64,000 nt of DNA from positions 779-64,778 of the forward strand of contig VMGJ01000006.1 of the NCBI GenBank assembly GCA_007376485.1, written 5' to 3'. The translations under genes and the position numbers were made by a program. Shown one piece after another: positions 2,707 to 55,851 of this stretch. Below the pieces are notes generated by a model. The model was not told the origin of the DNA, did no database searches, and saw nothing but the letters and a program-made list of their open reading frames with translations. Each line of letters starts with the position of its first letter. The first letter of the stretch is position 1. Source of the stretch: Parcubacteria group bacterium Licking1014_17. GTDB taxonomy: Bacteria > Patescibacteriota > Minisyncoccia > 2-02-FULL-40-12 > IGHO2-01-FULL-4-A.

Positions 2707-3351
2707 ATGGACAGTAAGCAAGTTGAAAATTTTGCGGCGGATTTTCTTGGGTACCTGTATTTGCCAATTGAGAAATCAGCGAAGTTGTTTATTGTTGGTA
2801 TAATTGGTATTCCCGGCTCTGGCAGAACCACAGTTGCCAGAAAATTGGTCAGTCATCTGCCAGGGGTGGTTGTGGTGCAGGCAAACTCGGCGCGGTATCT
2901 GTTGAAACATGCCAATCTGCCTTGGGGCGACAATGTCCGCGAAGTCACGTGCGCCGTCGCCAGGAAGCTTCTATCGCAGGGATACAGCGTAATTTTTGAT
3001 GGTGGAGCCCTTGAACAGAAAGACCGCGACAACATCAAGAAAGCAGCCGCTCCAAGCAATGCCGAGGTTTTATTCATTCGGATTCATATAGACCCCTCAT
3101 TAGCTGAAACAAGAGAGATCGCGAAATATAACGACCCGAGGTGGGTTTCCAGTTTTAACGATTTTCGCGTAAACACACCCGAAAAAATGGCAGGGAATAT
3201 CCGAGTCCGCGCTGTGGTAGACGAAAAATTAGGCTCCCAGGAAATTCATGGTCTTATCACTGAAATTGACAACAGCGGAAGTTTAGCCGATCTCGATGCC
3301 CAAGTAGAGGCAGCAGTGGGGAATGTAAAGAATATTCTTGGCTCTCTTTAA
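2707..3351 (+). CDS. P-loop NTPase/kinase-like protein (Walker A GIPGSGRTT)
   Basis: Track ORF 2674..3351. The likely true start is the ATG at 2707, preceded by GAAGGAGG. Walker A motif GIIGIPGSGRTTVARKL. Confidence 0.5.
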   Translation: MDSKQVENFAADFLGYLYLPIEKSAKLFIVGIIGIPGSGRTTVARKLVSHLPGVVVVQANSARYLLKHANLPWGDNVREVTCAVARKLLSQGYSVIFDGGALEQKDRDNIKKAAAPSNAEVLFIRIHIDPSLAETREIAKYNDPRWVSSFNDFRVNTPEKMAGNIRVRAVVDEKLGSQEIHGLITEIDNSGSLADLDAQVEAAVGNVKNILGSL

Positions 3352-43700: not shown

Positions 43701-44348
43701 TCAGTTGCCAATTCCAACTTTACAAATTATCGAATCCACCAATTTTTCTTTTGACGACTGGGTTAGTTTTTTTCTCTTGAATAATTTCTCGATCATTAAG
43801 TGGATTAATTCGTGCGCGATAGTGTAATCGGAAAAAGTTATGTCGGATTTCACATCGGGGTTCGCGCGAACATATATTTGGTTGCCCCGCCCAAAGCTTC
43901 CTCCGCTACCGTAAAATGTAATGTAGCAAACATAGGACTCCACAGTTTTAACGTCGGGGATTTTAGTGATTTTTTGAAAAAATCCTCTTTCTGTTTTTTG
44001 CCACTTTTCGCGCAAGATATTCAAAACCGATTTGTATTTACTGAGCGAATAAATAGAATTAAATTCGCGTAAAAATAGAGCGCGATCGCCGTCATTAAGT
44101 AGGTTTATATAACCATAATTAACACTATTTCCCAAGGATTTACTTGTCAGTTTTTTTAATTTCGATTCCAATTGCTTGGAAAACTTCGGTAATATCAATT
44201 CTGACGACCACTTCTTTAGAAATGACATTTTGCAATAAGTCCATAATACCTCCTCGATTTCTTTCTCTTTTGAGATACGGAACTGAACCTTATTTTTTTT
44301 GATGAATTTAGGCAAACAGGAAACAAACCTTACTAAAGTTATTGACAT
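43701..44348 (-). CDS. HExxH putative zinc metallopeptidase (paralog 1 of 3)
   Basis: 215 aa. ITFYGSGGSFGRGNQIYVRANPD...TIAHELIHL. Paralogous to 46933..47469 and 49601..50479. Confidence 0.55.
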   Translation of the reverse strand: MSITLVRFVSCLPKFIKKNKVQFRISKEKEIEEVLWTYCKMSFLKKWSSELILPKFSKQLESKLKKLTSKSLGNSVNYGYINLLNDGDRALFLREFNSIYSLSKYKSVLNILREKWQKTERGFFQKITKIPDVKTVESYVCYITFYGSGGSFGRGNQIYVRANPDVKSDITFSDYTIAHELIHLMIEKLFKRKKLTQSSKEKLVDSIICKVGIGN

Positions 44349-44436: not shown

Positions 44437-44910
44437 ATGGATGAAAAAAACATACTTCGACTCAAGTTGCCATGGCTGTGGGGCACGGACCTGCTTTGTA
44501 CCGCAGGGTACGGACCTGATAGCGGAAGTCCTTATCATGATGATAAGCATAATGCCTTCTACGCGCTTGACTTTGACAAGCCGTGGAGGGGAAATATGAT
44601 GCCGGTTGTGCCGATACTGGCTGTGGAAAAGGGCAATATCGTAACAATTGAGACCAATCCCGAGCATCCTTTTGGATGCCACGTAGTTATTAACCACGGA
44701 GGGGGGTATAAAAGCCTATACGCTCATCTAATGGGAATGCCTGATATACCAGATTTGGTGCGGCAGGGTCAATTGTTGGGCTATATGGGCGAAACGGGAC
44801 ATGCCCAGGGGCCACATCTACACTTCCAACTTTTCTTTAGAAACTTGTGCAGAGAGAAAATCAAACGAGCAATGCCGGCCCGGGTCCACATTCTCGGAGT
44901 TGTTACGTAA
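44437..44910 (+). CDS. M23-family peptidase domain protein (no signal peptide)
   Basis: 157 aa. YHDDKHNAFYALDF (HxxxD) and GETGHAQGPHLHFQL (HxH). Confidence 0.65.
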   Translation: MDEKNILRLKLPWLWGTDLLCTAGYGPDSGSPYHDDKHNAFYALDFDKPWRGNMMPVVPILAVEKGNIVTIETNPEHPFGCHVVINHGGGYKSLYAHLMGMPDIPDLVRQGQLLGYMGETGHAQGPHLHFQLFFRNLCREKIKRAMPARVHILGVVT

Positions 44911-46688: not shown

Positions 46689-46871
46689 ATGCCACAAGAA
46701 TTGTATGAATGGGTGTCTAACCTTGCCGGTGCCGGAATGTTAGCCGATAGCATACCGGCTGGCACTGGCCCAGCGCAAATGGGGCCGGGCAGTCATTGCG
46801 ACTGCGTTTGCGCGGAATGCGACAATGGCCGTGGGAGCGGCCAGTGCAACTGCGGCCCTAGGGATTGTTGA
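46689..46871 (+). CDS. Candidate RiPP precursor peptide A (60 aa; core HCDCVCAECDNGRGSGQCNCGPRDC)
   Basis: Internal ATG within track ORF 46584..46871, preceded by AGGAGG. Seven Cys in the C-terminal 25 residues. Upstream of the HExxH peptidase and radical-SAM/SPASM genes. Confidence 0.5.
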   Translation: MPQELYEWVSNLAGAGMLADSIPAGTGPAQMGPGSHCDCVCAECDNGRGSGQCNCGPRDC

Positions 46872-46884
46872 CTCCCGCAATTTC

Positions 46885-46918
46885 GTAGCTGCCGGTCTCT
46901 TGGGGGACCGGCAGCTAC
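46885..46918 (+). other. Perfect 13-bp stem hairpin (gtagctgccggtc / gaccggcagctac, 8-nt loop) with no U-tract
   Basis: Sits between the precursor A stop and the start of the HExxH gene (46933). Confidence 0.5.
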
Positions 46919-46932
46919 ACCCATTTCAATAA

Positions 46933-47469
46933 ATGAAAAATATTTCGGTAATAATATCATTTAAACCAATACTCAAGCATTTATTAGAGGTGGTGGTTAA
47001 AAGTCTTGAAGCCGGCAATTATAAAAAATGGGGGCTGAACCCGATTTTACCGCCTCGGCTAAGTGATAATGAAGATTACGGAGTGGCTGCTGAAAGATTT
47101 TGGAATGAATCGGGCTGGTCCGATAGAGTTCAACCTCTCGTGCCCAAAATCAATGACTGGTGGAATAAATTTGGCGCTAAATTTACCGAGTCGTTATCTG
47201 CCGATTTAAAAGTTATAGAACCGGAAAAATATTATATAATACTTACTCCTTTCGGTCCCGGCGGCAGTTATAACACGTCTCAGTCGGCGATTTATGTCAG
47301 AATCACTGATCCAAATGATAATCTGTGGTGGCAGAGAGTTATTGTGCATGAAATCGCGCATTTAGTTAGTGTTAAGCAAGAAAATAAAGACCATGCGCGA
47401 AATGAGGATAGAATAAATAAAATTGTGCGTGAAAAACTTGAAGCTATGGGTATGACTGAATTGTTATAG
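46933..47469 (+). CDS. HExxH putative zinc metallopeptidase (paralog 2)
   Basis: 178 aa. ILTPFGPGGSYNTSQSAIYVRITDP...VIVHEIAHL. Confidence 0.55.
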   Translation: MKNISVIISFKPILKHLLEVVVKSLEAGNYKKWGLNPILPPRLSDNEDYGVAAERFWNESGWSDRVQPLVPKINDWWNKFGAKFTESLSADLKVIEPEKYYIILTPFGPGGSYNTSQSAIYVRITDPNDNLWWQRVIVHEIAHLVSVKQENKDHARNEDRINKIVREKLEAMGMTELL

Positions 47470-47510
47470 CAAATTTTTGTCCTTTTTAAATTGAATATTG
47501 GAGGATTTCG

Positions 47511-48569
47511 ATGGAACAGTATATTTGCCGTCCTCGTGTGATGTGGCTGTCTATTGTTGATTACTGTAACAATAGGTGCCTATGGTGCTATGAACAGTGT
47601 AACGAAGTTCTAGGCCGAAGCATGAGCCTGGATTTGGTGAAAAGAATTTGTAACGCTATGCGATCCGTGGGGGTCAAAAAGTGCATAGTGATAGGCGGGG
47701 AACCCACCCTTCACCCGAATTTTTTTGAAGTGCTTTCAGAGATTAAGGAATGTGGATTCACGATTTCTCTTGTCACGAACGGGCGTCTTATCAGTAAACA
47801 CGAGATAGCCGAAAAATTGTCGCAAACCAGGCCTGATTTTCTGACCATTTCGATTCATGGGTGGTCGCCTGAATCCTATTGCAGGCTGACAAAATCAAAA
47901 AATGGTTTTTCTGAGGTAGCCGAAGGAATGACTCTCCTAAGAAAGCACGGCGTTAAATTTGAGGTGAATATCACCCTCAGTAAATTAACCGCTGGTTTAA
48001 CGGAAGAAATCCTTTCTTTTCTGGAAGCCAACAATATTAAGCACGCCGGATTTAATCTTGCGTCACCTTCGGTATCGGCCCAGAAAACCGTTGCTGAATT
48101 TGTCCCTACGATGCAGGAATTAGCGAGCCAAGCCGTATCCGTTTTCAAGGGCTGCTTGAGTCGGGGAATCAGGCCGTCATTCTTGCTGACCCTCCCTTTC
48201 TGCCTCTTTGGCGATGAGGAATTGTCAGAATTCTTCAAAGCCAGAGCTGTTATATCGGGATGTCAGCTACTATCGGGTTCTGGGATTGTTTTCCAAGCCG
48301 ACGGGTCTATATCCCTTTGCAACCATCTACTGGATTTCAAAATTGCCAATCCTCAACAGACAAGAGAATTGCTTGCTTCGGAAGGCAACTTTCTTGAATT
48401 CTGGAATGCGGAGAAATTGTGTGAAATAAGAAAACAAGCGAATTGTTTCAGGTCTCCTGTTTGCTCCAAGTGCAGTCAATGGGGCATTTGCGGTGCTGGT
48501 TGCATGGTAAGGTGGGCGCATCATAGCCTTTCCGAAGTAGAATTCAGAGAGGTAAATATTAACATCTAG
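47511..48569 (+). CDS. Radical SAM enzyme with C-terminal SPASM-type Cys cluster (RiPP maturase candidate 1)
   Basis: 352 aa. CNNRCLWC (Cx3Cx2C). C-terminal CNHL...CEIRKQANCFRSPVCSKCSQWGICGAGC. Confidence 0.8.
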   Translation: MEQYICRPRVMWLSIVDYCNNRCLWCYEQCNEVLGRSMSLDLVKRICNAMRSVGVKKCIVIGGEPTLHPNFFEVLSEIKECGFTISLVTNGRLISKHEIAEKLSQTRPDFLTISIHGWSPESYCRLTKSKNGFSEVAEGMTLLRKHGVKFEVNITLSKLTAGLTEEILSFLEANNIKHAGFNLASPSVSAQKTVAEFVPTMQELASQAVSVFKGCLSRGIRPSFLLTLPFCLFGDEELSEFFKARAVISGCQLLSGSGIVFQADGSISLCNHLLDFKIANPQQTRELLASEGNFLEFWNAEKLCEIRKQANCFRSPVCSKCSQWGICGAGCMVRWAHHSLSEVEFREVNINI

Positions 48570-48582
48570 GTCTACTCCGTAT

Positions 48583-48616
48583 GCAGATGGTGATTGTATG
48601 CCATCTGCTTTTATTT
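48583..48616 (+). terminator. Intrinsic terminator gcagatgg...ccatctgc plus ttttattt
   Basis: Directly after the radical SAM gene. Confidence 0.55.
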
Positions 48617-48625
48617 AAGAGGCTA

Positions 48626-48654
48626 TTGACAAATACTTTGGCTTGACTTATAAA
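48626..48654 (+). promoter_or_regulatory. Sigma70 consensus promoter cassette, copy 1 (TTGACA-N17-TATAAA)
   Basis: ctattgacaaatactttggcttgacttataaagga. Near-identical copies at 49339..49367 and 51945..51973. Confidence 0.6.
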
Positions 48655-48739
48655 GGAAGTATCAGTGTTGTCAGCTCTTTTGTGCTCTTCAACAATCGAA
48701 ACCGAGGCTAGGGTTTCTAGCCTGAAAGTGAGGTATGAA

Positions 48740-48865
48740 ATGAAAAAATTTCGTCGTGTCGCTCGCGGCAAGCCCTTTTTACCTATATCCGTAAACGAAT
48801 CTCAGTTTGAAAATTCACAGGCAAGAATGTTCTTGCCTGGTTTTTTTAAATTAGATTTTTACTAA
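48740..48865 (+). CDS. Small peptide, 41 aa (MKKFRRVARGKPFLPISVNESQFENSQARMFLPGFFKLDFY)
   Basis: Internal ATG of track ORF 48665..48865, after GTGAGGT. Driven by cassette copy 1. No Cys. Confidence 0.35.
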   Translation: MKKFRRVARGKPFLPISVNESQFENSQARMFLPGFFKLDFY

Positions 48866-48866
48866 T

Positions 48867-49244
48867 TTGGATGAACAAATTAAATTAACTCTTGAGTATA
48901 TTCAAAAATTGACTAAGGGTTGGTACAAATTCAGCAAAGCCACGGAGGCCTATAAAACATCTTTATTTGAATGTATTGCGCACAAGAAAACTGGTTGCAG
49001 CATGAAAGCAAGGTTTGCTCAACTGCTTTTGACTTTTCTTGGTTACGAAGTCGAAATAGTGAGAGGATACTATAAATCTCCTGAGAGATGGACTTTGCAT
49101 GCCTGGGTAAAGGTCAACGGCAAGGAGTACGACCCGACCAGGAAGAATTTTCAAATAACAAGAGACAAACACTCGCGAACAAATCCCGATCCTCACCTCA
49201 CTGATTGGGAACAGGTTTTCGAGAAAATGGAAGGGGAGAATTAA
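48867..49244 (+). CDS. Small transglutaminase-like Cys-His-Asp protein (putative cysteine peptidase)
   Basis: 125 aa. TGCSMKARFAQLLLTFLGYEVEIVRGYY...LHAWVKVNGKEYDPT. Confidence 0.5.
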   Translation: MDEQIKLTLEYIQKLTKGWYKFSKATEAYKTSLFECIAHKKTGCSMKARFAQLLLTFLGYEVEIVRGYYKSPERWTLHAWVKVNGKEYDPTRKNFQITRDKHSRTNPDPHLTDWEQVFEKMEGEN

Positions 49245-49338
49245 CCCCCAACTGAAACTCCATAGGCCGTCAGAATGTGGCATATACATACATTTTAACC
49301 CCCAAATGTCGCTAAGCCGTTGAACCATTACGTTACTC

Positions 49339-49367
49339 TTGACAAATACTTTAGCTTGACCTATAAA
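49339..49367 (+). promoter_or_regulatory. Sigma70 consensus promoter cassette, copy 2
   Basis: cttgacaaatactttagcttgacctataaaggagatagttgtt. Confidence 0.6.
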
Positions 49368-49410
49368 GGAGATAGTTGTTTTAAATCTGCGGAAAGGGGG
49401 TGAGGTAATA

Positions 49411-49548
49411 ATGCCCGAAGACCCGGGAACTCTTTCGCTTTTCATTGGTCCCGAGGACGACCAGGTGCCGTCCAAAATGAGTTGTGATTTTGATGTTGAC
49501 TGTTATGACTGCGACTATAACTGCGAGGAGTGCAACAACAGCGATTAA
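49411..49548 (+). CDS. Candidate RiPP precursor peptide B (45 aa; core SCDFDVDCYDCDYNCEECNNSD)
   Basis: Missing from the track because it is under 60 aa. Strong SD AAAGGGGGTGAGG 8 nt before the ATG. 5 Cys and 8 Asp/Glu in the last 21 residues. Followed by a hairpin (49569..49601). Confidence 0.55.
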   Translation: MPEDPGTLSLFIGPEDDQVPSKMSCDFDVDCYDCDYNCEECNNSD

Positions 49549-49600
49549 TAGCTCGTCAGTCGCCCGCTCAAGGCGACTCCGCAAGGAGCCGCCTTGAATT

Positions 49601-50479
49601 TTACCGAATTATTATAGATTTTCTATATTTTGAAAGTAGTTCTGTGTTACTAAAAATCTTGTTTCCGTGTTTTTTCCAAAGCGACATTTTTTCGGAAAGC
49701 TGCCCGTCTATTTTGAAGGCAGAACCTACAAGTTCTTCAATAAAATTTAAAAATGGCAATTTTTGTTCCAGCAAGTTCGCCAGTTGCTTCTCCACGTAGT
49801 CCTTGAAAAGCACAGGGCTATTGCCATTAGTTTTTATAAACAACTCTCTTATTTCCGGGTTACCCACTTCTCTAACGCTGAGGATTTCAGAAAGCCCTTG
49901 TTGATTAACAATAGCGGTAGCTACTAATTCTTTAAGTAAATAAACAGCATCTTCACTGATTATAATTCCTGTCCGTTTTTTAATTTCATCCAGATACCCC
50001 CAAAAAATTATGTGACTGATTTCGTGTATCGCCACATTAAGCAACCTTTTTTCAATGGTCTTCGCTGACTTTAATTCGCCGAGAATAGAATAAAAAAATA
50101 TTTTACCCCTGAACGGCGAAAACGGCAAAATGGTAAAAATTGCCTCATATTTGGCATCTTCCGGCCACTTATAATCCATAATTTTTGATAGTGCCGCAAA
50201 TGCATTGATGCCCCTTTCTTCGAGATGCCGCAAATTTGATTTCCTGATTTTTTCAATCGTATCGGCGTTATCTTTATAAAAATCGGACACATATCCGCTG
50301 ATTCTTTGCCGGAAATCAGTACCATTAGATAACTCGGCCAGCTTGGGATGGGCTTTAAAAATTGAAAACTTTGCCTGGACAAAGTAGGGGTGATTAACAA
50401 AACTCCAAAACAAGTTTGCATCTTCCCGCGGGTCTATTTTTATTGTTATTTTTGGGAGCTTAATTTGCTTTGTTACCAT
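49601..50479 (-). CDS. HExxH putative zinc metallopeptidase (paralog 3)
   Basis: 292 aa. ILPFSPFRGKIFFYSILGELKS...VAIHEISHI. Confidence 0.55.
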   Translation of the reverse strand: MVTKQIKLPKITIKIDPREDANLFWSFVNHPYFVQAKFSIFKAHPKLAELSNGTDFRQRISGYVSDFYKDNADTIEKIRKSNLRHLEERGINAFAALSKIMDYKWPEDAKYEAIFTILPFSPFRGKIFFYSILGELKSAKTIEKRLLNVAIHEISHIIFWGYLDEIKKRTGIIISEDAVYLLKELVATAIVNQQGLSEILSVREVGNPEIRELFIKTNGNSPVLFKDYVEKQLANLLEQKLPFLNFIEELVGSAFKIDGQLSEKMSLWKKHGNKIFSNTELLSKYRKSIIIR

Positions 50480-50548: not shown

Positions 50549-51862
50549 ATGTATAGGAGACTGAAATCGCCATTAATTGTTCAGATTGAGTTGACCGAGG
50601 CATGTATTAATAAGTGCCAACATTGCTACAATCCCCGACGATTAGAAGGTAATCACAGGCAAAGTTTTCCGGAAGATAGAGCCAAACTCGCCGTGGACAT
50701 CTTGGCCAAGGAGGAAGTTTTCCATGTCGTTTTGACCGGAGGCGAGCCGTTGTTAAATCGCGGATGTCTTTTCCGGCTTGCCAAAGAAATTTCTGCGGCC
50801 GGGATGACTTTCGGACTTAACTCCACTCTCTTTGGGTTTTCTCAAAAAGACGCAATAAGTCTGAAAAAATTGGGCATTCTTAATATCCTAGCAACCCTAT
50901 TGGGATCAACCAAAGAAAAGCATGATGCTCTGACCATGAACTCTGAATCCTTTACAAAGACCATTGAAGGGTTGGGTATCGCCTTGGAGGCAGGCATACT
51001 AGTTGGTGTGAATATGGTTGTCACAAACTACAATATCGCAGACATAAGAGACACCGCCAAGCTGGTTAAGACATTGGGAATCCGGTCTTTCTATGCGACA
51101 AAAGCTGCTTGTCCAAGTGATCAAAGAGAATTCAAAGATGCGATACTGGGCAAGGATCATTTTAGAAATTATCTGGAAGAGCTAGACTTGATTGGCCGGG
51201 AGGAGGGGCTTAAATGCGGTTTTCTGGAAGCTTATCCGCTTTGCGGCATGAAGAACTTGGGGAAATACGCCTACTTTCTCGGCCGTCGCTGCCTAGCCGG
51301 TATAACAAGCATGACCATAGCCGCTGATGGCAATATCAGGCCGTGTTCGCACTCTGACATCACGTACGGCAATATTTTCGTTGATGGCGGCATAGGTAAG
51401 GCATGGAGCAAAATGAGTGAGTGGCCGGATGGTCAATTATTGCCTGCCGATTGCAAAAAATGTCCGTTGCTAAACCGCTGCGGAGGCGGTTGCAGGATGG
51501 ATGCTAAAATCGCCGGTGGGTCAATCGACGCCATGGATCCGTTCACTTCACTGCCGGATGTTGATTATGTATTCGAACAACTTAAATCCGCCATTAAAGA
51601 TGGAGAAAGGCCACCACTGAACTTGCCGGACAAGATTAAACTGTGTCGCAACGCGAGAATTCGTTCTGAACCATTTAGCGGTGCGGTTTTCCCCCGAGGA
51701 AAACTTGGTACACTTCTGAATTCGGAAGGTATGCGTGTGTTTATGCAATTAGGGAGGGAAGTGCGTGTAACCAAAGAGCTTGTGCAAAACGCTGATTCCA
51801 AAGAAAAAACCGAGGAGTTTCTAAAAAAGCTTCTGTCTAAATCTATCATTGAACCCGCATAG
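50549..51862 (+). CDS. Radical SAM enzyme with SPASM-type C-terminal Cys cluster (RiPP maturase candidate 2)
   Basis: Track ORF 50525..51862 starts on TTG. The likely ATG is at 50549, after AAAGGAGAG. CINKCQHC (Cx3Cx2C). C-terminal CSHSD...CKKCPLLNRCGGGCRMD. Confidence 0.8.
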   Translation: MYRRLKSPLIVQIELTEACINKCQHCYNPRRLEGNHRQSFPEDRAKLAVDILAKEEVFHVVLTGGEPLLNRGCLFRLAKEISAAGMTFGLNSTLFGFSQKDAISLKKLGILNILATLLGSTKEKHDALTMNSESFTKTIEGLGIALEAGILVGVNMVVTNYNIADIRDTAKLVKTLGIRSFYATKAACPSDQREFKDAILGKDHFRNYLEELDLIGREEGLKCGFLEAYPLCGMKNLGKYAYFLGRRCLAGITSMTIAADGNIRPCSHSDITYGNIFVDGGIGKAWSKMSEWPDGQLLPADCKKCPLLNRCGGGCRMDAKIAGGSIDAMDPFTSLPDVDYVFEQLKSAIKDGERPPLNLPDKIKLCRNARIRSEPFSGAVFPRGKLGTLLNSEGMRVFMQLGREVRVTKELVQNADSKEKTEEFLKKLLSKSIIEPA

Positions 51863-51973: not shown

Positions 51974-52058
51974 GGAGATAGTTGTTCTTTAGGTGCTTTT
52001 TTGGCTCTTTAACTCAAAGGTTTCATTTTCCGGCTATGCCGGCGAAAGGAGGAAGGAA

Positions 52059-52946
52059 ATGAAGTTTTTACCGATTTTTGGGACAAAGGCGGCTTTCGTC
52101 GCCCTCATGGTGGTGCTTTGTCTTTTTACCATCACTGGCTGCGACAGAAACAGCCCCACCAAGCCCGAGCCGTCACCGACCCCAACCCCAGAACCGCAAT
52201 TTACCCCCACCCCTACCCCCGTATTTACTCCGACTCCAAGACCGACTTCAACTCCAACCGCTACTCCGACCCCGACTCCAACACCCACGCCAACTCTCGT
52301 GAATGACGCAGAATGTGTTAGGGTAAAAGCTAATTCCCCTGTTGAGGTGGGGGCGGTTTTTACCGCCACGGTGAAGATGAGAAACACGGGGACGAAGCCC
52401 TGGTCCGATCCGGATGCGGATGGTAATGACCAAGTCCACAAATTAGTAGGATTAAACCCCCTTACCTGGGGGACAAACGAAGTTAGTCTTCCATCCTCAC
52501 CAATAAACCCCGGGCAGACTGTAGTTTTTCACGTTACTGCCACAGCCCCAACTACAGCAGGGACATACGGCTTCAGCTGGCAAATGATCGAGGGCCAGGA
52601 ATGGTTTGGCGAGCTATGTTCGAAGGACATAATCGTCAATAATCCTGTCCTGATGTCAATTATTGTGACGTACCCTGTGTCTGGGTCTGTGTGGCACCAT
52701 GACGACGAAGTTGTAGTCATGTGGAATAGCACAGGCTATCCTGCCGATTTTGTTTACAGAATTTACGCGAAGTCGGGCAATTGGGAAAAAGACCTGGGCA
52801 TGAGTCAATACGGGCTACTGCTCTTCTACGTTCCGGCCGACTGGCCGCCTGGGGATTGCACGGTGTTTGTGACTGACCCCGCTTTCCCGCCCAAGACAAA
52901 TAACGGCGTGAGCGGGGACGAGAGCGAGGTTTTCCAGGTAGAGTGA
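52059..52946 (+). CDS. Secreted protein / lipoprotein candidate with long Pro/Thr linker
   Basis: ATG at 52059 after AAGGAGGAAGG. Signal peptide ending ITGC. (TP)n linker. Driven by cassette copy 3. Confidence 0.55.
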
Positions 52947-53032
52947 ATGTTTTTTTCAGGGTGGAGTTTTCGTACTCCACCTTTTTTTATATGTGGACAA
53001 ATTGAAATATTTTTTCGTGTTATAGTCGACAT

Positions 53033-54634
53033 ATGGGGAAAATATCTTTTCGCGCAAAAATCACGATGTCGCTAGTTCCCGTAGTCCTATCCGTGATGTT
53101 GTTTTCTATTTTTAATTTTTTCTCAAATAATTCAAACGCGGATGTTGGTTGCGTCACCCTCGCTCATCCTGTCGCGACTAAAATCAGTACACCAGCGCCC
53201 CCAACTGATTGGTTTATTGGGACAGCCGACAATGACACCGGCTCGCCTTGGGATTTAAATCATATTAAAACCCATATACAATGGTGGCCGAATTCCATAC
53301 CGGTAAAAGAGGTAGTGGTGGGGTCGCACATGGACGATGGCAGTGACCGCGCTGGCTGGTTTATTATGGACTGGGGCTGCTTTAAAGATTTACCCGGGAA
53401 TGATGTTGCTGAAAAAGAAAGGGGTGTTAATGAAGGAGGAGAATTCTGGGTAGGAACAAGCACCGCGAATTTAAACGTCTCCCCCACAAACCTATCAGGT
53501 AACCCCAAGGCTACGGGCTGGAAGTATGTAAGCAGCATATCAGAATCCGGTTGTAGCAATTGTCTCAATAGTTTCGATATAGGATTAAATAACGGCGCTG
53601 AATACAAATATGTCTATTTTTGGAGCAATGGCAGTCCGTCAGGATGTGTTGGGGGTATTTGTGAGGGCGTATCCGGTTCTAATGTTGAATACATCAATAT
53701 AGTAAATCCGCAGACTGAGACCGCGACTCCCACGCCCACGCCAACCCCTTCTGTTGATATTAAAGCCAACGGTTCGGACAATCCGCCGCAAGTAACATAC
53801 GGCGGGCAAGCGACGTTGACTTGGACTTCCAAGAACGCCACATCCTGCCAAGTTCCTCCGAATTCTCCGGAGGTGGATTGGTCGGGGGATAAGCCACTGA
53901 AGAACACCACCGGCGAGGTGAAGGCCAATCTTACCAATCCGACTTATACATATAAGATTAAATGTTCGGATTCTAAAGGCAATTCGGCCAGCGACTCGGT
54001 TACGGTCAAAATAGCCCTGCCGCCCCTCCTGGTGGATTTGAAAGCCGCGCAAAATGAAAGTTCGTTTGCCGACCCCGTGTCCGGAAGCGTGCCGTTTTTG
54101 GGGATTGATTTGAAAGCTACTGTCAGCAATGTTGCGAGCGGCTCTTTGAGTTATTATTTTTACTGCCAAAACACATTGGGCACCAGCGCGGCGATAAGTT
54201 CAAGCTATAACCCTTATCAAATAAATAATCTTTGCGATTACTGGGACCAAAATGGCGGGACTTATACCGCTAAAGTTCTGGTGAAGCAGGGGAGCAGGAC
54301 CGCCACCGACACGGCGACAATCACCTCGGTAAAAAATAACCTGCCGCAGGTTCTGAATGTGAAAGCTGAATCCGCCAACGGCTGTTTCTTGAGCGGCGGA
54401 CCGACCGAAATTATCAGCTGGACTTACAAAGACATTGATAACGACCCGCAGTCGGGATTCAAGGTGGTCGTCCATAAAGGGACTGCCACCGGTCCCGTAA
54501 TTCAGGATTCCTGTTCAAAAGGCACCTGCGCTCCGGGAAACACTTCCGCTTCCTATACCGTTACCGATTTGGAATGGGGGCAGAATTATTCGGTTGAGGT
54601 TTTCGTCTGGGATAAAAAGATGAATCCCGAATGA
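53033..54634 (+). CDS. Secreted protein with Pro/Thr linker and beta-rich C-terminal domains
   Basis: 533 aa. N-terminal hydrophobic signal. [10 protein letters not shown] linker. Confidence 0.55.
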   Translation: MGKISFRAKITMSLVPVVLSVMLFSIFNFFSNNSNADVGCVTLAHPVATKISTPAPPTDWFIGTADNDTGSPWDLNHIKTHIQWWPNSIPVKEVVVGSHMDDGSDRAGWFIMDWGCFKDLPGNDVAEKERGVNEGGEFWVGTSTANLNVSPTNLSGNPKATGWKYVSSISESGCSNCLNSFDIGLNNGAEYKYVYFWSNGSPSGCVGGICEGVSGSNVEYINIVNPQTETATPTPTPTPSVDIKANGSDNPPQVTYGGQATLTWTSKNATSCQVPPNSPEVDWSGDKPLKNTTGEVKANLTNPTYTYKIKCSDSKGNSASDSVTVKIALPPLLVDLKAAQNESSFADPVSGSVPFLGIDLKATVSNVASGSLSYYFYCQNTLGTSAAISSSYNPYQINNLCDYWDQNGGTYTAKVLVKQGSRTATDTATITSVKNNLPQVLNVKAESANGCFLSGGPTEIISWTYKDIDNDPQSGFKVVVHKGTATGPVIQDSCSKGTCAPGNTSASYTVTDLEWGQNYSVEVFVWDKKMNPE

Positions 54635-54646
54635 GACAGCAATAGT

Positions 54647-54904
54647 ATGTTTTACACGTATGTGCTAAAAAATAAGAATAATCGTTTGTACACTGGATTC
54701 ACTTATGATCTACGGAAACGCTTCAAGGAGCACAATGACAAAAAGTCAGAATATACAAAGCATCGTGGCCCCTATGAATTGATATACTATGAGGCGTGTC
54801 TTAATGAAAATGATGCTCGCCAAAGAGAAAAATATCTTAAATCTGGGACGGGTAAACGTTATCTCAAAGATAGATTGAAGCGTTTCCTGTCTCATACGGG
54901 ATGA
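54647..54904 (+). CDS. GIY-YIG nuclease-domain small protein
   Basis: 85 aa. FYTYVL...LYTGFTYDLRKRFKEHN matches the GIY-YIG motif. Confidence 0.7.
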   Translation: MFYTYVLKNKNNRLYTGFTYDLRKRFKEHNDKKSEYTKHRGPYELIYYEACLNENDARQREKYLKSGTGKRYLKDRLKRFLSHTG

Positions 54905-54924
54905 ACCCCTAAAGGCGCAAAGAA

Positions 54925-55851
54925 ATGAGCAAGAATAAATTTTTAAATAAAAAAACTATACTGCCGGTGATTTTGACGGTGTTGGTGATGAGTGCTGTTG
55001 TTTTTTTGGGAACCAGAGAAGGCAATATAGCGATTGGCGCCACGCCTACACCGACGAAAACCAAGACGCCAACACCTACTCCGCATCCAACTTCTACCCC
55101 GATTCCAACAAAGACTCCAACAAAAACACCTACTCCAACGCCGACTAAAACTTTGACCCCGACGCCTACGCCAACAGCGTCATTGCCGCCTCCTCCGAGT
55201 CAGCCGACAATCACCGCGGCGGGGGATTGCTATTCGGGGCCCTTCACTGCCCAGATTTCATGGACGGGCGCGCCCGGTTCCGGTTTTTACGTGGACGTAG
55301 ATGTCAATGAGTCCACTTTTTATGATTATTCTTTCTACAATAAATCCGCCGGCACGAGCACTCAAACCGATTCGGCGAATTTTCTCGGCGGCTGGCCAAG
55401 CCAAGACCAAACTTTGGTGATGATGCCCGGCGTTACTTATTACGCCAGAGTTTATAACGGCCAACACAGCCCGACGAGCGACCCCTTCATAAAACCGTAT
55501 TGCCCGAGCGTGCCGGGAACAACGAGCTGGATTTCGCCGCCTTATCCCTGCCCTCAACCAAATTTTGAATACAATCCGGTAAAGCCGTCATCGCAGAAAC
55601 CGGTGGACTTTACCGACAAGACCGTCTTTGGCGACGGCGGCACGCATCTTTTCAGCTGGGATTTCGGCGATAACAACACCAGTTCCGACCAGAATCCGAC
55701 GCATACTTACACCGCCAGCGCCAGCTACAACGTGACTTTGACCGCGACGGACAATTCTTTGACCCCACCCTGCACCTGCTCCGTCACCAAACCTCTAAAC
55801 ATCGGCAAGAAAAAATCTCCTCCGATTTTCAAAGAAGTGAGGCCAATGTGA
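54925..55851 (+). CDS. Secreted protein with Pro/Thr linker and C-terminal PKD-like domain
   Basis: 308 aa. FSWDFGDNNTSSDQNPTHTYTASASYNVTLTATDN is a PKD signature. The last 33 nt are duplicated at 56023..56055. Confidence 0.6.
   Translation: MSKNKFLNKKTILPVILTVLVMSAVVFLGTREGNIAIGATPTPTKTKTPTPTPHPTSTPIPTKTPTKTPTPTPTKTLTPTPTPTASLPPPPSQPTITAAGDCYSGPFTAQISWTGAPGSGFYVDVDVNESTFYDYSFYNKSAGTSTQTDSANFLGGWPSQDQTLVMMPGVTYYARVYNGQHSPTSDPFIKPYCPSVPGTTSWISPPYPCPQPNFEYNPVKPSSQKPVDFTDKTVFGDGGTHLFSWDFGDNNTSSDQNPTHTYTASASYNVTLTATDNSLTPPCTCSVTKPLNIGKKKSPPIFKEVRPM

Follow-up and report, generated by a model that had tools for sequence, protein, structure and literature searches.

A recurrent Patescibacteria gene cassette encoding a Cys-rich 45-residue peptide, probably a precursor of a modified peptide, with a radical S-adenosylmethionine/SPASM enzyme and an HExxH protein

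The peptide gene and its expression signals

We analyzed a 64,000-nucleotide (nt) stretch of contig VMGJ01000006.1 of Parcubacteria group bacterium Licking1014_17, hereafter the window, which carries at positions 49411 to 49548 a gene for a Cys-rich peptide of 45 amino acids (aa). Together with a 437-aa radical S-adenosylmethionine (SAM)/SPASM enzyme and a 292-aa protein bearing an HExxH motif, this peptide constitutes a recurrent three-gene cassette. The sequences and predicted structures suggest that it is probably the precursor of a ribosomally synthesized and posttranslationally modified peptide (RiPP) that is matured by the 437-aa enzyme. All functional statements made here rest on sequence, predicted structure, and gene order. 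The features of the cassette are the following, with positions counted along the window.

49339-49367, + strand: putative sigma-70-like promoter, with the -35 hexamer TTGACA at 49339-49344, a 17-nt spacer, and the -10 hexamer TATAAA at 49362-49367
49393-49402, + strand: Shine-Dalgarno sequence AAAGGGGGTG, 8 nt before the ATG, a 9/10 match to AAAGGAGGTG
49411-49548, + strand: putative precursor peptide gene, ATG start, 45 aa; putative leader, residues 1 to ~24; core, residues 25-45
49426-49446, + strand: leader recognition-type motif G6-T-L-S-L-F-I12, for which the alignment of family peptides gives the consensus G-F-E-[ST]-[IL]-L
49498-49533, + strand: conserved core D30-C-Y-D-C-D-Y-N-C-E-E-C41, with Cys arranged as CX2CX3CX2C
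49568-49597: GC-rich terminator-like hairpin where the peptide and HExxH genes converge, -22.5 kcal/mol
49601-50479, - strand: HExxH protein of 292 aa, convergent to the peptide gene; putative gluzincin-type metallopeptidase and proposed leader peptidase
50549-51862, + strand: radical SAM/SPASM enzyme of 437 aa, proposed maturase; the ATG at 50549 fits the N termini of homologues
51611-51859, + strand: predicted RiPP recognition element (RRE) domain, enzyme residues ~355-437, C-terminal, after the SPASM domain

The translation of 49411-49548, MPEDPGTLSLFIGPEDDQVPSKMSCDFDVDCYDCDYNCEECNNSD, agreed exactly with that quoted in the initial annotation of this DNA, and direct reading likewise gave the five Cys residues it had listed (25, 31, 34, 38, and 41, at spacings 6-3-4-3) and the eight Asp or Glu residues within residues 25-45. 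The near-ideal Shine-Dalgarno sequence that it had reported was also recovered. The promoter had been called perfect, but its -10 hexamer, in which the conserved final T is missing, matched at only 5 of 6 positions, so that the promoter is good rather than perfect. Because position 6 of this hexamer is A, the site at 49339-49367 was not listed by a consensus promoter scan. The gene had further been described as unannotated, whereas it is already called on the ENA contig and deposited at NCBI as "hypothetical protein CEN90_661" of Parcubacteria group bacterium Licking1014_17. The hairpin at 49568-49597 lies 3' of the peptide stop codon, is more stable than shuffled sequences (z = -3.39), and is followed on the + strand by AUUUU.

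The peptide is encoded by a conserved gene and belongs to a family

As a single query, the 45-mer retrieved only itself, both in a word-indexed search of 5.8 billion proteins and in a full HMMER search of 1.84 billion representatives, and the homologue search was therefore begun from the neighboring radical SAM enzyme. Homologues were reached first through synteny, by tblastn and open reading frame (ORF) scans beside the enzyme gene, and then with a profile built from 18 aligned family peptides. A profile-matching peptide lay beside the radical SAM homologue in 17 of 42 enzyme-related loci, which were the source loci of the profile, plus the window (E ≤ 1.2e-10). Against the collection of 5.8 billion proteins, the profile matched 124 small proteins at E ≤ 1, of which the best 120 span 39-75 aa; the named entries were hypothetical proteins, and no match carried a Pfam domain. 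The window peptide itself matched no Pfam model and no NCBIfam model (the latter at E ≤ 0.01).

The C-terminal core of the family was near-invariant. CxxCxxxCxxC occurred in 97 of the best 120 family members and CxDCxxNC[ED][ED]C in 86; within the former 97, the central Asp was kept in all 97, the Asn in 93, and the second Glu in 94. Residues C31, D33, C34, C38, and C41 were invariant across the 18-peptide alignment, the wider count giving four invariant Cys for the family, and D33, N37, and E40 were near-invariant family-wide. The aromatic positions of the core were mostly kept (Y/H/F and Y/V/F). Toward the N terminus, a hydrophobic-x-S/T-hydrophobic-hydrophobic pattern was found within the first 30 residues of 105 of the best 120 members, and AAGGAGGTGA preceded the start codon by 5-9 nt in nearly all family members.

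Codon-level divergence was then compared for the 12 core codons across 15 loci. Pairwise differences per site were 0.107, 0.092, and 0.505 at codon positions 1, 2, and 3, and the codon differences comprised 506 synonymous versus 221 nonsynonymous ones; at invariant core residues, TGT and TGC, GAT and GAC, and GAA and GAG swap freely between loci. The third-position-biased divergence in the + frame therefore indicated coding-type conservation. A short ORF whose single-sequence searches yield only itself is what a chance intergenic ORF, a noncoding RNA, or a regulatory element might look like, but the third-position bias, the 124 profile matches, the conserved Shine-Dalgarno sequence, and an Rfam search of the peptide locus that gave zero matches at E ≤ 1 render such an explanation exceedingly improbable. 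Two overlapping minus-strand ORFs (49381-49584 and 48963-49475) were likewise ruled out, the codon-position pattern suiting the + frame only. Thus, 49411-49548 is a real conserved protein-coding gene. The synonymous-biased substitution that the initial annotation had proposed to look for was seen, and homologous small ORFs adjoining radical SAM genes, on which it had staked its reading, were present in at least 17 other genomes.

The peptide, enzyme, and HExxH genes recur together

At E ≤ 1e-10, the search with the 437-aa enzyme gave 74 homologues, the majority of which share 33-46% identity with it. Scanning species-representative genomes with the enzyme alignment located the 42 loci, which belonged nearly throughout to metagenome-assembled genomes (MAGs) of Patescibacteria; this number is a lower bound, the scan having used a single degenerate pattern, and the loci were ascertained through the enzyme, a bias partly offset by four peptide-first look-ups. 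A few loci carried Gammaproteobacteria, Desulfovibrionaceae, or Actinobacteria labels, as given in the MAG records. The cassette occurs mainly in ultra-small Patescibacteria.

Homologues of the 292-aa HExxH protein were found at 17 loci in the enzyme-first search. The peptide gene usually stands directly after the radical SAM homologue and is followed by the convergent homologue of the HExxH gene; the window order, with the peptide forward, HExxH reverse, and radical SAM forward, was shared by loci L002 and L013. Among the four peptide-first look-ups, the radical SAM gene was immediately upstream in three, the exception being L046, and the HExxH homologue was convergent downstream in all four.

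All neighbors named in the initial annotation were found, namely a transglutaminase-like protein (48867-49244), the HExxH protein (49601-50479), and two radical SAM/SPASM enzymes (47511-48569 and 50549-51862). Its view of a radical SAM neighborhood held as far as the 437-aa enzyme and the 292-aa HExxH protein are concerned, which are the partners of the peptide, but the transglutaminase-like gene and the 352-aa enzyme at 47511-48569 belong to a second module, described at the end.

On another Patescibacteria contig (L048, 1-5823), the cassette was flanked by R.HinP1I, Vsr, reverse transcriptase (RVT_1), and DpnI genes. This neighborhood is of a restriction-modification or mobile-element type, and horizontal mobility may be hinted at.

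The 437-aa enzyme carries a C-terminal RRE-fold domain

The 437-aa enzyme matched Pfam Radical_SAM (E 4.6e-16), Fer4_12, and SPASM, and its NCBIfam TIGR04085 SPASM score was 44.4 bits against a cut-off of 27. The three Cys of its CX3CX2C motif (C19, C23, and C26) were near-invariant (≥ 90%), and seven more Cys were invariant (C232, C248, C266, C302, C305, C311, and C315). An AlphaFold2 model was obtained with a predicted local distance difference test score (pLDDT) of 91. The nearest solved structure was SkfB (profile E 1.3e-29; Foldseek E 2.2e-15), followed by anSME, SuiB, PqqE, and TigE; these nearest solved relatives are SPASM enzymes that modify peptides. As structural neighbors, the epimerase EpeE/YydG, SuiB, PqqE, and anSME scored similarly to SkfB.

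In the predicted structure, residues ~355-437 form several beta-strands and then three helices, and fold comparison matched this domain to RRE domains, including those of leader-bound TbiB1 and TfuB1. Searching its sequence against Pfam PqqD and the PDB returned only insignificant winged-helix matches, and the RRE was identified by fold comparison alone. As modeled, then, the 437-aa enzyme bears an RRE-fold domain at its C terminus.

The leader motif is shared between subfamilies whose cores differ

More distant loci of the enzyme family also contained small ORFs in which the N-terminal motif was kept, such as FGYVSLLLD, LSIFEE, LESIFE, GFVPLIW, and GIVSLIE. Their cores were wholly different, being SCYCNCGCACxVTG, FCCQNCGT, CECYGHPCDCDRSCD, or, in L016, a two-Cys variant. 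Hence the leader motif is conserved while the Cys-rich cores differ between enzyme subfamilies. Sister peptides with the leader (F/Y)GYxSL(L/M) and the core SCYCNCGCAC(N/Y/V)VTG were observed 100-400 nt after the radical SAM homologue in L020, L023, L024, L025, L027, and L032; the FCCQNCGT core was observed in L034 and L035, and the two-Cys variant is a 36-mer (3014-3124).

A conserved recognition sequence with a swappable core, beside an RRE-bearing enzyme, is the defining organization of RRE-dependent RiPPs. The features of an RRE-dependent radical SAM/SPASM RiPP class were present here, namely the CX3CX2C motif with a SPASM domain, an RRE fold, and, next to the enzyme, a short candidate precursor in which a C-terminal core follows a conserved leader. 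A leader motif shared by peptides with unlike cores therefore points to a precursor logic rather than to the logic of a metal site.

This bears on the possibility that the peptide is a small unmodified metal-binding protein, either metallothionein-like, an alternative raised in the initial annotation, or a mini Zn or Fe-S module coordinating through CX2CX3CX2C and carboxylates, which might perhaps serve the neighboring Fe-S enzyme. The tight and highly conserved motif, in which four Cys as well as Asp, Asn, and Glu are invariant, would suit such a protein, as would a core more conserved than is usual for RiPPs and the existence of one locus (L046) with the peptide and no adjacent radical SAM gene. 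Metal binding does not, however, explain the dedicated leader-binding RRE fold of the partner enzyme, the N-terminal motif common to subfamilies with entirely different Cys-rich cores, or the co-conserved putative peptidase. The peptide gene also shows tight linkage to those of the radical SAM enzyme and the HExxH protein, and the peptide matched no metallothionein or other model in Pfam or NCBIfam. Unlike the metallothioneins, with which it shares no family match, the peptide is tied to enzyme genes. We therefore disfavor this alternative as improbable; metal binding by the mature product is possible.

The HExxH protein is a candidate leader peptidase

In the 292-aa protein, H152-E-I-S-H156, E184, and L118-P-F-S-P122 were invariant in 13 homologues, and E184 sits 28 residues past HExxH, a gluzincin-like spacing. 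Alignment by hhalign of its family with the other HExxH family of the cassette was weak (probability 37%, E 3.5e-4) and placed the HExxH motifs, as well as the Glu downstream of them, in register.

Eight loci without the 292-aa protein (L017, L019, L021, L027, L028, L029, L031, and L038) had in the same slot, directly after the radical SAM gene or after the peptide, an HExxH protein of ~240 aa of the Peptidase_MA_2 type (PF13485), which was above the Pfam cut-off in three of six sister loci. It looks as though the putative leader peptidase has been replaced there by a nonorthologous Peptidase_MA_2 protein.

Proposed maturation of the peptide

Within the reading of the peptide as a RiPP precursor of the 437-aa enzyme, the leader would dock on the RRE through its conserved motif, which is GTLSLFI in this peptide and GFETIL in the family consensus, and the enzyme would abstract hydrogen from the core D-C-Y-D-C-D-Y-N-C-E-E-C. 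Thioether bonds of the sactipeptide or ranthipeptide type, like those formed by PapB and QhpD, would then join the thiols of the four invariant Cys to carbons of the invariant Asp, Asn, or Glu neighbors, so that the product would be a small and rigid peptide, strongly acidic and with several bridges. The HExxH protein, a putative zincin, would cut off the leader. Thioethers are proposed because SkfB is the best neighbor of the enzyme and because PapB and QhpD provide precedents for Cys-Asp/Glu thioethers. As a sequence feature only, the window core contains the Cys-Xn-Asp/Glu pairs C31-X3-D35, C41-X3-D45, C31-X-D33, and C38-E39-E40. Once the peptide is taken as a precursor of this enzyme, the case for thioethers specifically is about evenly balanced.

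Several observations weigh against the peptide being a RiPP precursor of the 437-aa enzyme. That the peptide is modified at all is what we infer from sequence, predicted structure, and gene order. The enzyme scored far under the cut-off of every characterized maturase family (PapB, 56.6 of 340; StsB, 57 of 625; AlbA, 50 of 850; SkfB, 37 of 300), and the 292-aa HExxH protein had no detectable homology to known peptidase families in Pfam and PDB sequence searches. The CX3D motifs are conserved in part only, the window having just C31-D35 and C41-D45, and core conservation is unusually high for a RiPP. No conserved transporter or immunity gene was found in the cassette neighborhoods. Finally, L046 (937-2026) carries a family peptide and an HExxH homologue with no radical SAM gene in the available DNA; the end of this contig is reached 0.9 kb before the peptide gene, and a PKD-repeat protein of 1357 aa is encoded downstream.

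Because no maturase cut-off was reached, the reaction type is left among thioether formation, C-C or C-O crosslinking, epimerization, and Cys oxidation of the anSME kind. The peptide might accordingly be a RiPP precursor that undergoes a radical SAM chemistry other than thioether formation, such as C-C or C-O crosslinks to the conserved Tyr, epimerization, or Cys oxidation, the Cys then forming disulfides or binding metal in the mature product. The similar scores of SuiB (C-C crosslink), PqqE (C-C), anSME (Cys/Ser oxidation), and EpeE/YydG to that of SkfB are consistent with this, as is the fact that aromatics are largely kept at two core positions. These aromatic positions nevertheless accept Val, Ile, His, and Gln, while Cys, Asp, Asn, and Glu are invariant; the thioether-forming SkfB is the best match in both sequence and structure; and the known substrates of PapB and QhpD have cores of Cys with Asp/Glu (PMC9413430, PMC10114670). 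We regard a nonthioether chemistry as rather unlikely, though less so than an unmodified metal-binding protein.

Comparison with characterized systems

The initial annotation likened the peptide to SCIFF or ranthipeptide precursors. Comparative genomics bore out a Cys-rich candidate precursor for a radical SAM/SPASM enzyme, but not SCIFF membership, and the PapB cut-off was not reached. The SCIFF system (CteA/CteB thermocellin; TIGR03973/TIGR03974) is alike in its ~45-aa precursor, its unusually conserved Cys-rich C-terminal core, and its adjoining radical SAM/SPASM enzyme with an RRE. It differs in having six Cys, against five in the window peptide and four that are invariant throughout the family, and the cassette core is acidic (Asp/Asn/Glu), whereas SCIFF cores are rich in Gly, Thr, Ser, and Lys. 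The RRE of CteB is N-terminal, that of the 437-aa enzyme C-terminal, and the cassette is found mainly in Patescibacteria rather than Clostridia and has an HExxH partner gene. The SCIFF model matched none of the 18 aligned family peptides at E ≤ 10, the sole NCBIfam matches among them being TIGR04114 (E = 0.13) and soxL2 (E = 2.8), in one member each. The SCIFF maturase model was likewise absent from the 25 best NCBIfam matches of the 437-aa enzyme, and CteB (5wgg) aligned with the enzyme profile at E 8.5e-13 over residues 14-130 only.

Freyrasin PapA/PapB and QhpC/QhpD are similar in that their cores are dominated by Cys and Asp/Glu. In Cys-Xn-Asp motifs with n = 0-6, PapB connects Cys to Asp or Glu by thioethers (PMC9413430), and QhpD links Cys to the beta or gamma carbon of Asp/Glu through thioethers (PMC10114670). 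Unlike PapA, the window peptide lacks a repeated CX3D array and has just one compact block, CX2CX3CX2C, that includes an invariant Asn; on the PapB ranthipeptide maturase model NF047865 (cut-off 340), the 437-aa enzyme scored 56.6 bits and the 352-aa enzyme 44.9 bits. SkfB, which acts on SkfA to give the sporulation killing factor with its sactipeptide-type thioether, is the best profile and structure match of the enzyme core. It is nevertheless only 21% identical, its family model scored 37 bits against a cut-off of 300, and its precursor is unrelated; the match spans profile positions 8-285 only, so that the C-terminal RRE region has no SkfB counterpart there. The RRE (PqqD-like) domains of lasso peptide B1 proteins, NisB, LynD, and TigE differ from that of the cassette, which had no sequence-level match to Pfam PqqD or to any RRE in the PDB and is fused C-terminally after SPASM. 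By analogy, the cassette appears to resemble the SCIFF, ranthipeptide, and sactipeptide systems in its working, yet it falls outside each of them when judged by their models.

Novelty and potential role

No model in Pfam (2025) or NCBIfam (June 2026) matched the peptide or the 292-aa HExxH protein, and full-text literature searches, including one with the core motif as text, returned no description of the peptide family. Patescibacteria (candidate phyla radiation) have tiny genomes, and as episymbionts they are thought to have almost no secondary metabolism. Metagenomic surveys of biosynthetic gene clusters reported few or no clusters in this group (PMC11613949; PMC8692599), in which the present cassette would be a compact and recurrent source of a peptide product. 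Owing to the near-invariant core and the C-terminal RRE, a 45-aa peptide with one enzyme makes a well-defined and easily cloned system, which could help to find the reaction of an uncharacterized radical SAM/SPASM subfamily and to learn how a conserved modified peptide would serve bacteria that live as episymbionts.

Such unusual conservation of the core would allow for a role of a more novel kind. It is conceivable, though we hold it only tentatively and think it doubtful, that this is a lineage-wide Patescibacteria peptide in which an uncharacterized subfamily of C-terminal-RRE radical SAM enzymes fixes four Cys of a 12-residue block to Asp, Asn, or Glu in that block, maybe through a new linkage such as Cys-Asn. 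The product would then be an acidic peptide caged by thioethers, with metal-binding or redox activity, or else a signal in host interaction. By analogy, such a peptide may have a status like that of the SCIFF, mycofactocin, and PQQ precursors rather than that of a hypervariable bacteriocin.

A second peptide module and other neighboring genes

A second Cys-rich peptide module lies upstream of the cassette, at 46689-49244 of the window, with the following genes.

46689-46871: second peptide, 60 aa, 8 Cys, ending in ...HCDCVCAECDNGRGSGQCNCGPRDC
46933-47469: HExxH protein of the second module, 178 aa
47511-48569: radical SAM/SPASM enzyme of the second module, 352 aa, without the C-terminal RRE extension
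48867-49244: transglutaminase-like protein, 125 aa, weak lasso-B2 similarity (E 0.0025)

The 352-aa and 437-aa radical SAM enzymes are 20% identical. A homologous trio of peptide, radical SAM, and HExxH genes of the second module was found in L022 (7647-9434), and relatives of this module stood beside the main cassette in L002, L003, L008, and L014; the two modules therefore often travel together. The transglutaminase-like gene was considered as a leader peptidase for the 45-aa peptide and ruled out, as a homologue was present in 0 of 42 related loci and the gene sits with the upstream module. The 66-codon ORF at 48665-48865 is annotated on the ENA contig but, with no family match, looks spurious. 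It was also considered as a stand-alone lasso-B1-like RRE and ruled out, given its GTG start, its implausible sequence, the lack of a Pfam match, and a strong terminator-like hairpin inside it (48818-48839).

Further upstream, a third HExxH protein of 215 aa (43701-44348, - strand) is paralogous to that of 178 aa, with which it shares 29% identity over a stretch of 76 aa; it has a weak DUF5700 match and adjoins an M23 peptidase (44437-44910, + strand) ~5 kb upstream of the peptide gene. Just downstream of the cassette, three large predicted proteins, possibly exposed at the surface, are encoded at 51993-55851, with a GIY-YIG protein of 85 aa (54647-54904) between them. The three have TPTPTP-type Thr/Pro linkers, Ig-like, PKD, or fn3 domains, and N-terminal hydrophobic segments.

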